Source of the DNA: Candidatus Altimarinota bacterium
GTDB taxonomy: Bacteria; Patescibacteriota; Gracilibacteria; CAIRYL01; GCA-016699755
Assembly: GCA_963664295.1 (NCBI GenBank)
Contig: OY760935.1
Coordinates: 1,056,001 to 1,120,000, forward strand
DNA: 64,000 nt
Reading direction: 5' to 3'
Position numbers and translations under genes: made by a program. Position 1 is the stretch's first letter; every line of letters begins with the position of its first letter. The notes beneath the pieces are model-generated. The model searched no databases. It was given only the letters and a program-made list of their open reading frames with translations, and had not been told where the DNA came from. Shown in pieces: positions 11,758 through 59,660 of this stretch.

Positions 11758-12145
11758 AGAGCGGGATGCTTATTTTTTCGGAGCTTTGCTCCTCAAAAAC
11801 AAGGCCTTCTGCGCTCGCTCGGAATTTTGCACAAGCGCAAATTCTCTCGCTCGCTTGAGTGTCGAACCCGAGGCTTCTTATCAAGCCACTTCTTTGCCAT
11901 TATTAAAAATTTTGCCCCCATCAGGGCAAACTTTTTAATGGCGGAGAGAGCGGGATGCTTATTTTTTCGGAGCTTTGCTCCTCAAAAACAAGGCCTTCTG
12001 CGCTCGCTCGGAATTTTGCACAAGCGCAAATTCTCTCGCTCGCTTGAGTGTCGAACCCGAGGCTTCGTATCAAGCCACTTCTTTGCCATTATTAAAAATT
12101 TTGCCCCCATCAGGGCAAACTTTTTAATGGCGGAGAGAGCGGGAT
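11758..12145 (-). repeat. 189-bp tandem repeat (2 units) containing tRNA-Ser 3' end with 94-nt T-loop insert
   Basis: 11758-11946 vs 11947-12135 differ at one position (11878 T / 12067 G); each unit has GGGTTCGA-[94 nt]-ATCCCGCTCT(CTCCGCCA) on the minus strand. Confidence 0.95.
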
Positions 12146-12220: not shown

Positions 12221-12248
12221 GTAATATTATGTTGTTAATGTTTCATCT

Positions 12249-12383
12249 GCACACTGCTTGTTGCGTGTGCCCCTATCTAGATACACTCAGCCATCTCTCC
12301 GTACTTTGTAAAAATATTAATGTTCTGTTCGGCACACTGCTTGTTGCGTGTGCCCCTATCTAGATACACTCAGCCATCTCTCC
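12249..12383 (-). repeat. Two 52-bp direct repeats carrying the tRNA-Ser 5' end
   Basis: 12249-12300 = 12332-12383; each starts (minus strand) GGAGAGATGGCTGAGTG, the first 17 nt of tRNA-Ser. Confidence 0.95.
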
Positions 12384-12493
12384 ACATTTTTAACGAGCAG
12401 AGATATTTTGCCGAAATTTTTATTCACAATCAAGCCTGATTTGCTATATTCGCTGATCCATGAGAAAATCAAGGCAGAAATTTTGCAAAAAAC

Positions 12494-20998: not shown

Positions 20999-23900
20999 AT
21001 GGAAACTCTTAAAAGATTCCTTGCGAGTTTCTCAGCTATTGCACTTCTACTTTCAGTAGCAGTACTTCCAGCTTCGGCTGCGACGTTTTCTGATATTGAA
21101 GGTCACTGGAGTGAAGAATTCGTTGAGACACTTGTGGACGAAGGTTTGGTTTCAACAGACCATGAAAACTATCGTCCAGATGATTATCTTAACCGTGCAG
21201 AGTTAGCCAAGCTAGTAGTTGAAGCAAATGACGGCATCATTCCTGGTGTTACAGAAGCTCCAACTTTCTCAGACGTGGCAAAAGATGCATGGTACTACGA
21301 TTATGTTGAAACAGCATATGCTCTTGGCATTGTTGGTGGTTACGGTGACGGGACTTTTGGTCCACAAGACAACGTAACACGTGAACAAGCTGTTAAAATG
21401 ATCGTGGAAGGTCTTTCAGTTCCTACTGATTTAGACCCAGCAGAACAATTCCCTGATGTTTCATCAAGCGATTGGTCTGTTGACTACATTACAACAGCTG
21501 TTAATCAATGTATAGTTGGTGGTTATGCTAATGGTAATTTTGGTCCACAAGATTTAGTTACTCGTGGTCAAGTTGCAAAAATGTTAGCAAAAGCTATGGA
21601 CTACGGTTGTGATGCAGACGACGCTGGTGATGACGCTGGTGACGACGACGACGCTGGTGATGACGCTGGTGACGACGACGATGCTGATGTAACTCCTGTT
21701 AGCGAAGGTACAGTTGAGGTTAGCCTTTCTGCTGATAATCCAGCAGGTCAAACTGTTCCAAACAATGGTACAAATGTTCCTTACCTTGTACTAGACTTTA
21801 CAGCTGGTAATGGTGAAGACGTTGAAGTTACAAACTTGACTATTTCTATTGCTGGTCTTGGTAACGAGAACAACTATAATGAGGTTAAAGTTTTTGATGG
21901 TTTTGACCAACTTGGTTCTGGTAGAAGCTTCTCAAGTGCTACTAATCAAGCTGCTTTAAACCTAACAACTGATCCAATTAAAGTTGAATCTGGTACTACA
22001 AAAACAATTGTAGTTGCTGCCGACATGGCTGCTGCTACAGTGGCTGGTACTGAAAACTATTTCTCAGTTGACTCAGTTGAAAGTGTTATGGCTTTTGGTG
22101 CTGAAACAGGTGGCGAAGTTGAAGTAGCCGGTGATTTCCCACTAAGAGGTAACATTATGACAATTGGTAGCGTTCCGGTTGGTGCTCTTGACTTCACAGA
22201 AAAGACAACAAGCGATACTAATGCTGATATTGGTGAAGAACAAGTGCAGGTTTCACGCTTCGAAATTGCAGCTGACGGTGCTGAAGATATATTAGTTAAA
22301 GCTATTACTTTTAAACAAGTTGGAACTGCTGATACTGATGAGATTGCTAATGTTTCTCTTTGGTATGGTGATACTCAACTTGGTGAAACAGCTGAAACAG
22401 TTGGCGCTGGCGATAAAGTGACAATCGACCTTACAGGTATGGCTGATGGCGGTTGGATTCTTGAAGACGGCACAGCAAGAACTCTTTGGGTAAAATGTGA
22501 CATCATTAAAGGTGTTGGTAAAAATATCACTTTTGAAATTGATGAGCCATCAGAAGATGTTATTGCTGAAGGCTTAACTTACGGCTTTAACGTTGGTATG
22601 GGTGATTGGTGTAAAGGTGCAGGTGGCACTACATCTGCTGGTGCTGGTTGTGCTGGTGTTAATGCTACTGCTGTTGATATTAATGGTGGTACACTTAACT
22701 TCGCATTTACATCAACTGCTCGTGATGTTGCTCCTGATACAGGTGATATAGAATTTGGTGTTCTTACAATTGAAAACGCAGGTGAACCTGTGACAATTAA
22801 AACACTTGATCTTATTCTTGATCCAACTGCTGGTGTTGGTACAGCTAATAACAACAAAATTACAGATGTAAAACTTGTTGACGCTGATACAGGACAAACA
22901 GTTTCTGGTCCAGAAGATCCAGCAGCTTCTGCTATTGCTGCAGCTACTACATTCGGTGATGATTTCTTCATTGATAGTGGTGAATCTTTAACTCTTCAAT
23001 TGTTAGCTGATGTTGAAAACACAGCTGCAACTGGTGAAAAATACAGCTTTGCTCTTGATATGAGCACTATTGAATACAAAGGTGAAACATCTGGTGATGA
23101 CTTTACTTGTCTTGCTGGTGGTGATGACGACTGTAAACCAACAGCTGATCCAGACACAAAAGATTACACAATTGCTCAGCCTACTGTAACTTTCAGTCAA
23201 AAAACAATTGCTGGTCAGATTTATGTATCTAAAGCTGAACAAATTGTTCTTTGGGAAGGTACAGCAAAAGCTAATGATGCTGAAGATGTAAAAATTACAG
23301 AACTTGTGTTCACAGAAACAACAGGTTGTTCTGGTGCTGCTTGTAATGGTAATGGTCATACAGACAACATTGAAAACCTTGCTATCTACACAAAGAAAGG
23401 TAGTTCAACTACTCTTCAAGAAAGTGGTGTAAGCATGGGAGCTTTGACTGGTCCTAATACTACTCCTACTAACACTACATCAACCGTTACATTTACAGAG
23501 CTTGATGAAGATGGATCAAGTGGTATTGCTCTTTCAGCTGGTGAAGAAGTTACAATTATCTTGAAAGGTAATGTTGCTTCAACAATAGTTCACCAAGATA
23601 GTGGTACTGGTACTCCAACTGCAACATTTAGTATCAACCCAGCTGGTGGTGATGCTTCAGCAGAAAACCTAGAAGGTACTGCTGCTACAGTTGTTGGTGG
23701 TTTACTAACTGCAACAGCTCAAACTCTTGCAAACTCAGGTTCTCTAACAGTTGAACTAAACACAGATACTCCAGATGCTCAACTTCTTGTTGCTGGCACA
23801 GAAAATGTAGAAATTGCTACATTTGACTTTGATGCTGACGATGAAGATGCTGACATCGAAGATCTTACTGTTGAATTCACACCAGCCGGTGCTGCAAACC

Positions 23901-25207
23901 AAGTTAATACATTAGTTCCTGGTGGAACTATTGAAGCTGCTGATACATTCACAGTTAAAATCACTAATGATGACGCTGCTCTTACTAACAACACAATAAC
24001 AGTTACTGGTAATGCTACAGCTGCTCTTACAGCTGCTGCTCTTACAGCTGCTATCAATGCTGATCCAACACTTTCTGGTTTTGTGACAGCTGCTACAGTT
24101 GGTGGTACTACAACTACTGTAACCGCTAACACTGCTGGTACAGCCTTCACTCTTGAAGCTAGTGCTACAGACGGTGGTGCAGACACTACTCAAAGAATTA
24201 ACAATGTTAAAACAACAGCTAATGTACCTGCTACATCAACAAATGCTATTGATTCAGTAGCTCTATTCTATGATGATGGTACTCCAGTGTTGAAAAACAA
24301 TGGTAGCGCTGCTACAACAGCAGACATCACAGCTAATCTAGCTGAATTAACTGGTCTTGACCTTGTTATCGATAAAGATAATGCATCAGACACAGTTATT
24401 GGTGTTTATGTAACATTGAACGACATTTCAGATACTGATATTGCACGCAGTAACATGCAATTCTCAGCTAACCTATCATTTGGTGCTGGTGAATATGATA
24501 TCACTGGTTTCTCATCAGGTACTGACTACGTTGCAGTAACTGTAGATGGAACAGGAACCAACACTGATGTTGGTAATACAATGTATGTATTTGCTAACAA
24601 AGTTGTTGCTAGTGAAACTCTTAACTCAAGTGGTAATCCAGAAGCTGATACTCTATTATCTGATGGTTGGAAAAATGCTGCTAAAATCACTCTTACAAGA
24701 GGCTCTAAAAATGCATATTTGAAAGAACTTTCAGTAGACATTAACCAATCTATTGGTGCTGCTTCTTCATATGGTGTTTGTGAGCTAAGACTTAAAAACG
24801 GTAGTGGTGACCTCATCGCTTCTATTGATGCTGGTGCTGCTGCTCCATTATCTGGTACACAAACTTTCACAGTTGGTACTTGTGCTACTGGTACTTGTGC
24901 GCAATCTGATCTTGTTAATCTTCGCGATGTAATTTCTGAAGATGAAGTTTACACTGTTGAAGCTGACGTTGAAGGTTTGGACTTAGTTAACACTAACCCT
25001 GCTGCTGTTTGTGACGGTAGTGCTACTATATTTGATGACAATGACAAATTAGAATTTGAAATTGCTATCAACGGTAATACTCCAAACACAGCTGATGATT
25101 ATATTAAATGGGAAGATTATGGTACAAACGGTAAAGATGGTGCTGAGATCAAATGGATTGATCTTGGTAACAGTACTGTACAGAAAATCTCTAATACTCT
25201 TCAATAA
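20999..25207 (+). CDS. S-layer protein with three N-terminal SLH domains
   Basis: Signal peptide; FSDI..HW, GYGDGTFGP..VTREQ, GYANGNFGP..VTRGQ; acidic, T/A/G-rich; strongly biased codons. Confidence 0.9.
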   Translation: METLKRFLASFSAIALLLSVAVLPASAATFSDIEGHWSEEFVETLVDEGLVSTDHENYRPDDYLNRAELAKLVVEANDGIIPGVTEAPTFSDVAKDAWYYDYVETAYALGIVGGYGDGTFGPQDNVTREQAVKMIVEGLSVPTDLDPAEQFPDVSSSDWSVDYITTAVNQCIVGGYANGNFGPQDLVTRGQVAKMLAKAMDYGCDADDAGDDAGDDDDAGDDAGDDDDADVTPVSEGTVEVSLSADNPAGQTVPNNGTNVPYLVLDFTAGNGEDVEVTNLTISIAGLGNENNYNEVKVFDGFDQLGSGRSFSSATNQAALNLTTDPIKVESGTTKTIVVAADMAAATVAGTENYFSVDSVESVMAFGAETGGEVEVAGDFPLRGNIMTIGSVPVGALDFTEKTTSDTNADIGEEQVQVSRFEIAADGAEDILVKAITFKQVGTADTDEIANVSLWYGDTQLGETAETVGAGDKVTIDLTGMADGGWILEDGTARTLWVKCDIIKGVGKNITFEIDEPSEDVIAEGLTYGFNVGMGDWCKGAGGTTSAGAGCAGVNATAVDINGGTLNFAFTSTARDVAPDTGDIEFGVLTIENAGEPVTIKTLDLILDPTAGVGTANNNKITDVKLVDADTGQTVSGPEDPAASAIAAATTFGDDFFIDSGESLTLQLLADVENTAATGEKYSFALDMSTIEYKGETSGDDFTCLAGGDDDCKPTADPDTKDYTIAQPTVTFSQKTIAGQIYVSKAEQIVLWEGTAKANDAEDVKITELVFTETTGCSGAACNGNGHTDNIENLAIYTKKGSSTTLQESGVSMGALTGPNTTPTNTTSTVTFTELDEDGSSGIALSAGEEVTIILKGNVASTIVHQDSGTGTPTATFSINPAGGDASAENLEGTAATVVGGLLTATAQTLANSGSLTVELNTDTPDAQLLVAGTENVEIATFDFDADDEDADIEDLTVEFTPAGAANQVNTLVPGGTIEAADTFTVKITNDDAALTNNTITVTGNATAALTAAALTAAINADPTLSGFVTAATVGGTTTTVTANTAGTAFTLEASATDGGADTTQRINNVKTTANVPATSTNAIDSVALFYDDGTPVLKNNGSAATTADITANLAELTGLDLVIDKDNASDTVIGVYVTLNDISDTDIARSNMQFSANLSFGAGEYDITGFSSGTDYVAVTVDGTGTNTDVGNTMYVFANKVVASETLNSSGNPEADTLLSDGWKNAAKITLTRGSKNAYLKELSVDINQSIGAASSYGVCELRLKNGSGDLIASIDAGAAAPLSGTQTFTVGTCATGTCAQSDLVNLRDVISEDEVYTVEADVEGLDLVNTNPAAVCDGSATIFDDNDKLEFEIAINGNTPNTADDYIKWEDYGTNGKDGAEIKWIDLGNSTVQKISNTLQ
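21617..21688 (+). repeat. 30-bp coding tandem repeat (DDAGDDAGDD) forming an acidic linker
   Basis: gacgacgctggtgatgacgctggtgacgac twice plus a partial copy. Confidence 0.9.
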
Positions 25208-25261: not shown

Positions 25262-25349
25262 GTTGTGTAAATTTTTAAGTAATTTTTTCTTTAAAATTGA
25301 CTTGATATAAATTATATGCGATTATGTCCGGGCAATTTTTGAACAATAT

Positions 25350-25424
25350 TGCCCGGTAGCCAAGCGGTAAGGCAGGGGACTTTGAATCCTCCATGCGTAG
25401 GTTCGAATCCTACCCGGGCAGCCA
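25350..25424 (+). tRNA. tRNA-Gln(TTG)
   Basis: TGCCCGGTAGCCAAGCGGTAAGGC-A-GGGGA-CT-TTG-AA-TCCTC...GGTTCGAATCC...CCA. Confidence 0.97.
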
Positions 25425-25610
25425 TTTAAAAACAGTTGTCACAAAGTGACAATTTTTTTAAATTATTGTTTAGGTAGGACCGAGAACCTGGTTCGACAGC
25501 TAGGAGCCCGAGTGCAAGTGTATGCTTGCATTAAGCTTGCCGAGGGCGACGACGATGCCTTATTTTGCGAGGTGAAACCGAGCAAAATGAGCATCCTACC
25601 CGGGCAGCCA
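25407..25610 (+). repeat. Duplicated tRNA-Gln 3' end (18 bp, period 186) with 96-nt T-loop insert
   Basis: ATCCTACCCGGGCAGCCA at 25407-25424 and 25593-25610; GGTTCGA at 25490-25496 precedes the insert 25497-25592. Confidence 0.93.
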
Positions 25611-25719
25611 GTTGCTTAGCGAGAATTATGTTTAAGTGGGTTTTTTGCATAGTTTCAAATTGTCTTCAGAAAACAATTATATTAAACTAAAAAAGATAAA
25701 AAATTTAACCACAAAAGAC

Positions 25720-58223: not shown

Positions 58224-59660
58224 TTACATCTCAAGACTATTAACAATTTCTGTAGTACTACTATTACCAAGGTCTATCCACTTAATCGCAACACCATCTT
58301 GACCATTTGTTCCATAGTCTTGCCAAGTAATATAATCATCAGAAGTATTTGGCTCATTGCCATTAATTGCAACTCTGAATGTTATTTCGTCATCATCACC
58401 AAAACTAGCAGCACTGCCATCACAGTTGCCAGATTCGTTTATGCCTTCGATTTTAGCTTCAACAGTGTAAACTTCATCTTCAGAAATTACATCGCGAAGA
58501 TTAACAAGATCAGATTGCGCACAAGTGCCAGTGGCACAAGTGCCAACTGTGAAGTTTTGTGTGCCAGTTAATGCAGCACCAGTGCCAGCATCAATAGAAG
58601 CAATTGTATCAAAGTTGTTATTTACAAGTTTAAGTTCACAAACACCAAATGAAGAGCCAATGCTCGTAGTTTTATTAATATCTATTGAAAGAGCCTTAAG
58701 GTATGCCTCTCCAGTATTTTTTGTAAATTGTACCTTTAGGGTATCTTTCCAGCCAGCGCCAAGTGTGGTATCAGCACCAATAGACTTTGTGGCAACAACT
58801 TTGTTAGTAAATATATACATTGTGTTACCAGTAGCAGTGTTATTACTCGCTCCATCTGTAGTAATTGAGCTATAGCTAACACCAGAAGTTACACCAGTAA
58901 TATTATATTCACCATTAGCAAATGAAAGTTTTGTTGCAAATTGCATATTGCTTTTTGCAGTGTCAGCACTATTAGTGACATCATTTATTGTTGCATAAAC
59001 ATCAATAGTTGTGTCTGAAGCACTATCAATAATAAGATTAAGTCCAGTCAATGAGGCTAAACCATCTGTGACGTTTGCCACTGTGGCTACACTGCCATCA
59101 TTTTTTAATACCGGAGTCCCATCATTGTAATAAAGCGTAATTGAATCAATAGCGTTTGTTGAGTTACTAGGAGCTTCAGCAGGAACTGTAAACTCAACAG
59201 TAAGATCCTCAATATCAGCATTCTCAGTATTCGCATCAAAATCAAAACTAGCAATTTTTACATTACTTGACCCACCAACAATAATCTGAGAATCAGGAGT
59301 ATTTGAGTTTAGCTTAGCTGTCAGACTTCCTGAGCTTGGTGTTGTTTGTGCTTGAGAACCAAGCCTAATAATAACATTGCCGTTTTCTGCGTAAATAATG
59401 TTGTCATCATTTACGTCAACAATGGTGCGGGCTTTTTTTACAGCCTTGTCGGAAATCAGGGTTCCATCTTGGCTCCATACAGGTTCTTCTGCCAGTATGC
59501 TTTTTAGTAAGTTCATAAATTTACCACCCTCAATCTCACCATCAGGTGCTTCCCAGGTAGCATAAGTGGCTCCAAGGCCAAGAAAAAGCGCAAATCCCAG
59601 CACAGCTGAAGATACTGCTATTGTTGCTGTTTTTGCAATGTTTTTGATTTTTGTTTTCAT
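58224..59660 (-). CDS. Secreted paralog of the S-layer C-terminal region (no SLH)
   Basis: From SGSLTAKLN onward aligns with S-layer C-terminus (ADIEDLTVEFT, STNAIDS, GTCATGTCAQSDLVNLRDVISEDEVYTVEA, IKWIDLGNS). Confidence 0.88.
   Translation of the reverse strand: MKTKIKNIAKTATIAVSSAVLGFALFLGLGATYATWEAPDGEIEGGKFMNLLKSILAEEPVWSQDGTLISDKAVKKARTIVDVNDDNIIYAENGNVIIRLGSQAQTTPSSGSLTAKLNSNTPDSQIIVGGSSNVKIASFDFDANTENADIEDLTVEFTVPAEAPSNSTNAIDSITLYYNDGTPVLKNDGSVATVANVTDGLASLTGLNLIIDSASDTTIDVYATINDVTNSADTAKSNMQFATKLSFANGEYNITGVTSGVSYSSITTDGASNNTATGNTMYIFTNKVVATKSIGADTTLGAGWKDTLKVQFTKNTGEAYLKALSIDINKTTSIGSSFGVCELKLVNNNFDTIASIDAGTGAALTGTQNFTVGTCATGTCAQSDLVNLRDVISEDEVYTVEAKIEGINESGNCDGSAASFGDDDEITFRVAINGNEPNTSDDYITWQDYGTNGQDGVAIKWIDLGNSSTTEIVNSLEM

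Follow-up and report, generated by a model that had tools for sequence, protein, structure and literature searches.

A 186-base non-coding repeat begins at position 25425, directly after the CCA of a tRNA-Gln(TTG) gene, in a single-contig genome (1.215 Mb, 33.5% G+C) of Candidatus Altimarinota bacterium. Positions are those of the window, by which we mean the whole stretch of 64,000 nucleotides analysed. A large S-layer-homology gene flanks the tRNA gene on one side and a dUTPase gene on the other, and a promoter-like site lies upstream of it at 25297-25325. The parts of the locus are as follows; hairpin A is supported by a G.A motif search, alignment and covariation.

25350..25424, + strand: tRNA-Gln(TTG) gene with encoded CCA, host of the module (ARAGORN; Rfam tRNA, 65.9 bits)
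25425..25462, + strand: hairpin 1, terminator-like, with arms 25426-25442 / 25446-25462 and a C(AAA)G loop, then a T run
25463..25489, + strand: antisense arm, a decayed reverse complement of the tRNA CCA, acceptor 3' strand and T-arm
25490..25496, + strand: GGTTCGA core, equal in sequence to tRNA positions 52-58 (5' part of the T-loop)
25506..25547, + strand: insert hairpin A, made of a stem, tandem G.A pairs (CGAG/CGAG), an inner stem and a small hairpin
25559..25591, + strand: insert hairpin B, whose loop is T(GAA)A and which carries another tandem G.A pair
25593..25610, + strand: 18-nt direct copy of the tRNA 3' end, from position 59 to CCA
25611..25628, + strand: stub of a second repeat family, outside the module proper

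The distal copy at 25593-25610 is identical to 25407-25424 at 18 of 18 positions, and the 168 nt between these two 18-nt repeats hold no open reading frame of at least 60 amino acids. Hairpin 1 (25425-25462) has three G-C pairs only and forms the centre of a long imperfect palindrome, and the antisense arm terminates in GAGAACC, a landmark of the family to which the module belongs. The second repeat family trails CCA ends at other sites in the genome: it also follows Gln(CTG), Gly(TCC), Lys(CTT), Phe and Glu(CTC) copies, and while it is cut to 18 nt in the window (25611-25628), it is full-length at other genome sites. Starts resembling it trail tRNAs in another genome, G004. Upstream, an inverted repeat at 25328-25356 (12 nt, 92%) can pair with the 5' end of tRNA-Gln(TTG) and would compete with its acceptor stem; it is absent before tRNA-Gln(CTG). 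The S-layer-homology gene (23716-25175) has an inverted paralogous stretch at 58259-59352, about 33 kb off, matching at up to 90% over 161 nt.

The initial annotation had described an inverted segment able to pair either with the 3' strand of the real tRNA, across the hairpin, or with the downstream copy. Its coordinates and pairings hold, and the inverted arm, the hairpin and the distal CCA copy are all present. The arm at 25466-25479 pairs with the tRNA at 25408-25421 and is predicted to pair alternatively with the copy at 25594-25607, in either case through 9 Watson-Crick, 4 G.T and 1 A.C pairs, and GAACCT (25484-25489) extends the arm pairing onto the T-stem and T-loop of the tRNA. The arm scores 11 against its own tRNA and a mean of -1.5 against 43 other tRNA ends, none of which reaches 11. 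Folding of the region predicted both structures, at -110.3 kcal/mol for arm with tRNA and -98.5 kcal/mol for arm with copy. Once the arm is made, its fold-back onto the tRNA is predicted to beat the cloverleaf by about 7 kcal/mol; the fold of lowest predicted energy has the tRNA's 5' acceptor strand, released from its usual partner, bound to the distal copy, and its GCCA end is also free. Folded as RNA, the region reaches z-scores of -6.5 (25320-25615) and -5.3 (25425-25612), and none of 200 shuffles did as well in either case.

The two predicted folds, and the lead of the fold-back over the cloverleaf, favour the idea of the initial annotation that the module works as RNA: read-through of hairpin 1 would produce a fold-back that sequesters the 3' half of the tRNA and reduces the amount of mature tRNA, or a processed, CCA-ended small RNA of the RtT type acting as a sponge or decoy. 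The promoter-like site and the few G-C pairs of hairpin 1 point the same way. We regard this RNA role as possible but doubtful, and weigh it below against a reading of the module as a folded single-stranded DNA element.

Modules behind tRNA genes of this and other genomes

Arm-bearing modules, whole or truncated, follow 16 of the 38 tRNA and tmRNA genes of the genome. A near-exact 3' copy lies within 260 nt of 15 of these 38 genes (a 5' copy lies upstream of 8); 12 of these 15 loci carry the arm, and truncated modules were recognized by reading at 4 further genes. One class of modules has the GAACC/GGTTCG core seen in the window, and a second has a longer arm with the T-loop split earlier (Val, Ala, Lys, Met). 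The core pattern occurs four times in the genome, always behind tRNAs, and its reversed control never. A single module copy is found at Gln(TTG), two at Ser(GCT), Val(TAC) and Ala(TGC), and three at Lys(CTT); perfect tandem arrays occur. The Gln(TTG) and Gln(CTG) modules are identical at 73 of their first 74 nt and have different inserts, and the Gln(CTG) insert recurs in Ser, Arg and Gly modules, so that the parts form a mosaic. By eye, no module lies behind 5S rRNA in any of five genomes. Contigs assembled from three runs of one sample, a form of data that drops rare variants, contained no module-skipping joint and no circle.

Other repeats accompany tRNA genes of this genome. At tRNA-Ser(GCT), two tandem 189-nt modules lie downstream and two 5'-fragment repeats upstream (window 11758-12135, 12246-12390), the latter keeping the anticodon stem with its loop replaced. 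A third post-CCA repeat can replace hairpin 1 and is found after tRNA-Leu(GAG), -Met, -Thr(GGT) and tmRNA, as well as after Ser(GGA) and Lys(CTT) copies. The trailers of tRNA-His, -Glu(CTC) and -Phe consist of tandem 80-85-nt pseudo 3' halves; the tRNA-His unit holds a short inverted copy of the anticodon region and may be an anticodon-loop version of the module design.

We searched for an enzyme that could mobilise the module. The genome encodes a single tyrosine recombinase and neither a Y1 transposase nor a reverse transcriptase, and a rough motif screen detected no integrase among the open reading frames beside other modules; that no enzyme was found weighs against the DNA reading. Small GIY-YIG proteins are candidates in view of the Ssn study (PMC11893778). 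Three small GIY-YIG genes are present, all with other repeats (two in a tRNA-Pro cassette, one among palindromic repeats), and nothing ties them to the window module. The hairpin at the end of one Arg(GCG) module resembles the hairpin of the tRNA-Pro cassette. The cassette itself (genome 482700-483400, minus strand) comprises two 321-nt units before tRNA-Pro, each made of a tRNA 5' fragment, a hairpin replacing the anticodon arm and then an 82-aa GIY-YIG gene, and a similar cassette precedes tRNA-Leu in genome G045. Genome positions 268800-269500 and 622200-623300 hold tandem 217-nt palindromic repeats and, around a 95-aa GIY-YIG gene, similar ones, in an arrangement that resembles an Ssn/SRM system.

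Among relatives, 19 tRNA-Gln loci were viewed by eye; one was too short, and the module is present at 2 of the remaining 18. Modules are found behind other tRNAs in several genomes of the class. This patchiness is hard to square with a needed control of tRNA maturation, and it counts against an RNA role.

A wider pattern scan matched at least 120 GTDB contig stretches and at least 125 viral stretches. Among the matches listed for the broad pattern, 174 of 256 lay inside a following tRNA; a narrow viral pattern gave two matches, both of them chance occurrences in coding sequence. We kept 49 of 58 parsed candidates, dropping nine (following tRNAs, mis-parsed, reversed or compound loci). Among the matches listed, this genome supplied 6 of the 49 modules, relatives 10, GTDB contigs 31 and viral contigs 2, and removal of two near-duplicate arms left 47 for the substitution, tRNA-versus-copy and register counts. 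The set was chosen by the GAACC..GGTTCG pattern and includes kin that are not independent. Because of this selection, conservation of the core motif, such as the GGTTCG that is invariant in 28 modules of other genomes, is not independent evidence.

Named hosts include Moellerella, Mixta, Sedimenticola, Lysobacteraceae and Rickettsiales, as well as Ca. Enterousia, Lachnospiraceae, Paenibacillus and Saccharibacteria. An enterobacterial module is matched in 4363 of 5426 E. coli genomes, almost always on the chromosome, and two E. coli strains carry 3 versus 2 RtT copies behind the same tRNA-Lys. When the RtT insert was compared with plasmids, the 15 matches listed were mostly chromosome-sized E. 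coli records. Several single modules repeat the terminator behind the copy as well, with a match that reaches the terminator end and goes no further. Target duplication would give such a repeat; collapse of a tandem array would give the same. The tRNA-Ala(GGC) locus of genome G004 (L097) has an arm that is a perfect 16-nt complement of the upstream tRNA and direct copies that match a different tRNA-Ala allele, which makes the module chimeric.

The antisense arm and the folded insert

In 45 of the 49 modules, the arm scores higher against its own tRNA than against other tRNAs on average. Past GAACC, 23 informative arm positions agree with the real tRNA, 1 with the copy in the module itself and 5 with neither, as would also be expected if the tRNA were the conserved ancestral state. 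A tRNA-versus-copy test (24 to 4) was given no weight, as it is biased: arms were aligned to the tRNA, and several differences were register errors. A clear hairpin is present in 32 of the 47 modules and absent from 15; in 24 of the 32, the arm begins at most 2 nt away from the point that mirrors A76 across the hairpin loop. Against permuted hairpin centres this register is modest, at 25 compared with a mean of 17.6 and a maximum of 25. The mirror position of the arm start makes the tRNA end, the hairpin and the arm one imperfect palindrome.

The arms have decayed, with only 288 of 483 positions still able to form Watson-Crick pairs (tRNA positions 63-73), while the distal copies are identical to the tRNA at 503 of 517 positions. 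Such loss of pairing in the arm next to a preserved copy argues against an RNA role. The initial annotation had pointed to C-to-T changes that retain G.U pairing. Over 47 arms, C-to-T changes (53/117) do exceed G-to-A changes (46/168; p = 0.002), in keeping with that proposal and with an RNA role; the matching excess of A-to-G (11/72) over T-to-C (10/51) does not appear, which speaks against both. A skew that affects C-to-T and not A-to-G is also predicted by strand-biased deamination, and since wobble tolerance and deamination of an exposed sense strand both fit, the G.U argument does not show selection at the RNA level. G.T retention in the arms is thus weak evidence. Mutagenesis of the type seen in diversity-generating retroelements (DGRs) was rejected as a source of the arm changes, with mismatches mainly opposite G and C, not A.

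We aligned hairpin A of the window with eight others from the genome and two relatives. Both partners vary at 10 of its 14 pairs, and pairing is kept in 85.5% of cells, a value reached by none of 500 shuffles and by no slid control; the structure was drawn by hand from the window sequence and the alignment, and the sequences are related, which tempers this support for the DNA reading. The tandem G.A stem motif is found in 15 of 47 inserts, compared with 1.5 in shuffles and none on the opposite strand, and this strand bias argues that the insert fold is selected on the tRNA-sense strand. Tandem G.A pairs are stable in RNA too. The folding strand is also the transcribed strand, as an RNA role predicts, and to this extent the sense-specific fold favours that role and weighs against the DNA reading.

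The loops point towards DNA. C(GNA)G hairpins number 32 in the 47 inserts, compared with 2.6 in shuffles (maximum 8), while GNRA loops number 4, compared with 1.8. At the loci of other genomes, C(GNA)G loops close 25 of 109 insert hairpins and 2 of 94 terminator-like hairpins. C(AAA)G loops in DNA behave like C(GNA)G, and in this genome 14 of 23 hairpins directly after tRNA genes, the one in the window included, close with one or the other. Mini-hairpins of the GCGNAGC type are described as extraordinarily stable in DNA and much weaker in RNA, and as sitting at single-strand priming signals (PMC13037366). An insert rich in the stable DNA type and not enriched in GNRA supports the DNA reading and argues against an RNA role. 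The window insert itself, however, lacks C(GNA)G loops, and its class shows little of this signal, with 3 C(GNA)G and 4 C(AAA)G loops among 18 hairpins.

The same features bear on whether the module is an inert scar, in which a tRNA-integrating element would have lost its interior, kept its two ends and later been amplified as a minisatellite. Integration usually leaves a duplicated tRNA 3' end behind (PMC9897764), every change in the arm of the window copy runs from G or C to A or T, as decay would produce, and perfect tandem arrays fit amplification. A scar should not, however, have inserts that covary and keep strand-specific G.A motifs, or the same landmarks from Enterobacterales to this group. 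It also leaves unexplained an inverted arm in mirror register and a T-loop that is split by the insert and not duplicated whole, and a rough motif screen revealed no integrase-bearing long form. This origin is already disfavoured, and we consider it improbable.

The insert could also be a single-strand priming signal kept by the host (of the primosome-assembly or ssi type), serving replication restart at heavily transcribed tRNA genes. The phiX174 F-G intergenic hairpin, which we take to be a primosome assembly site, has the same build of a stem, tandem YGAR/YGAR, a short stem and an A/T-rich hairpin. The best ColE1 match of the E. coli RtT insert covers 15 of 16 nt at about position 1330, presumably a pas site; its score of 27, however, is near the 95th percentile of shuffles (26). 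PriA was present in all five genomes searched, and the CCGAAGG mini-hairpin occurs both in RSF1010 ssiA (PMC13037366) and in the RtT consensus. Against this, genes with a module are co-oriented with the fork in 10 of 16 cases and genes without in 15 of 22 (p = 0.74), with fork direction, origin and terminus inferred from GC skew, so that modules follow the direction of the tRNA and not that of the inferred fork; a chromosomal priming role would call for a site on the lagging-strand template. AAGCGG is not enriched (3 versus 2.65), and stable DNA hairpins can converge. The likeness of the insert to primosome and ssi signals would then be a structural resemblance only, and a host priming function is the least probable of the readings considered here.

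A proposed DNA element that copies its target, and its known counterparts

With confidence that is about evenly balanced, we propose that the module acts as non-coding DNA, a hairpin element folded on the single tRNA-sense strand, copying its target and spreading through recombination, with its read-through RNA being secondary. The RtT layout is observed in 49 modules from several groups and, with the match of each arm to its own tRNA and the mirror register, it argues for such an element, as do the G.A motif on one strand, the covariation of hairpin A, cores and inserts shared as a mosaic between tRNAs, the tandem copies that vary between E. coli strains, and the patchiness among relatives. 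Support is tempered by the modest outcome of the register test and by a module set that is selected and contains kin.

The steps of its movement, all of which we infer, would be as follows. The arm would arise by fold-back copying primed in hairpin 1. At the universal T-loop sequence, the copying would jump to the core and insert and later return to the target, which would duplicate the tRNA 3' end, often with the terminator, and leave the tRNA intact. Recombination, at the 18-nt repeat as well as at the GAACC/GGTTCG and GAGC/ATCC junctions, would then let copies gain or lose units and exchange their inserts. The mobilising enzyme would act in trans, and the read-through RNA would be a by-product open to co-option by the host.

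The module resembles integrative elements of tRNA genes in its direct repeat of the tRNA 3' end, which starts in the T-loop and leaves the tRNA intact. It differs from them in having no integrase or cargo, only 168 nt between the repeats, and an inverted arm. Moreover, 16 of 38 genes carry a module, and the one tyrosine recombinase of the genome is sited elsewhere. REP/RAYT and Ssn/SRM systems are likewise short, non-coding DNA folds of one strand, probably served by a protein in trans (PMC11893778), whereas the module is always tied and tailored to a tRNA or tmRNA end. Unlike in RAYT systems, the genome has no RAYT-type Y1 gene, and its small GIY-YIG genes adjoin other hairpins.

The closest named counterparts are the tRNA-linked repeats (TLRs) of E. 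coli. These have been known since 1978 with no assigned function, and are reported as 22 copies at ten loci, each repeating 18-19 bp equal to the end of the upstream gene (PMC8144298). The window module likewise lies directly behind a stable-RNA gene, with its last 18 nt equal to the 3' end of that gene and a terminator-like hairpin ahead, and the family has one to a few tandem copies per locus and several loci per genome. Judged on sequence, the window copy carries the published TLR hallmarks. It differs in that the final copy is followed by the stub of another repeat and not by a second terminator. The main TLR description (PMC8144298) makes no mention of an antisense arm, a mirror register or DNA-type loops; its supplementary alignments may bear on the arm. 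In the literature searched, mostly without subscription papers, we found no description of TLR/RtT outside Enterobacterales.

Public E. coli records annotate RtT as an sRNA. The rRNA-linked TLRs yield defined read-through RNAs bound by Hfq and CsrA, and rrB among them arises by read-through of a terminator that stops 87% of transcripts, followed by processing (PMC8144298). RtT RNAs are also listed as differentially expressed in Klebsiella RNA-seq (PMC4147364). These data favour an RNA role and weigh against the DNA reading. It is because the E. coli TLRs are transcribed that we keep an RNA role as a possibility, and a CCA-ended RNA such as the initial annotation had suggested may exist at the window locus, as its E. 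coli relatives arise by terminator read-through and processing (PMC8144298). Against an RNA role, the stress phenotype of E. coli RtT was retracted and deletion of the rRNA-linked TLRs gave modest phenotypes only (PMC8144298).

The consensus of RtT (RF00391) has the landmarks of the window module in the same order: a U run, a purine-rich arm, GAGAAcC, GGUUCGA, a hairpin insert, GAG.AUCC and CCA. In both the consensus and the predicted fold of the window module, the arm and the 3' copy form the closing helix, and the E. coli lysine RtT has a 13-nt perfect anti-T-arm. The insert sequence of the window, by contrast, is not alignable to RF00391. An Rfam scan of the whole window and of the module alone returned no credible family for the module and no RF00391 match (cut-off 45 bits). 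Among 20 loci scanned, two enterobacterial modules score as Rfam RtT (94 and 88 bits), and some modules of relatives reach 14-20 bits only. When 28 modules from other genomes were built into a profile, it did not detect the window copy; in the genome it matched two Ser modules only, both weakly (E 0.04 and 0.16), and these are linked to the window copy through the Gln(CTG) module. From these alignments and scores, the window module appears to be built like RtT and linked to it stepwise, and is not a member by score.

The present analysis contributes three points: the connection with the named TLR class, the mirror register, and insert folds that are strand-specific and of DNA type. In its furthest form, which we think unlikely, TLR/RtT would be a pan-bacterial, protein-less mobile DNA that writes its own guide: the arm would form by fold-back, entry would take place at the T-loop, the G.A-rich insert would act as a single-strand priming or recognition hairpin, and an excised circle would be copied and re-inserted by host enzymes alone. 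A self-copying element, if real, would account for the partial self-copies at roughly half of the tRNA genes in this small genome, copies that annotation tools and scar-based reasoning dismiss. If TLR/RtT is one branch of a wide, tRNA-tailored and DNA-folded family, the question it poses shifts from its role as an sRNA to how it copies its target and moves.
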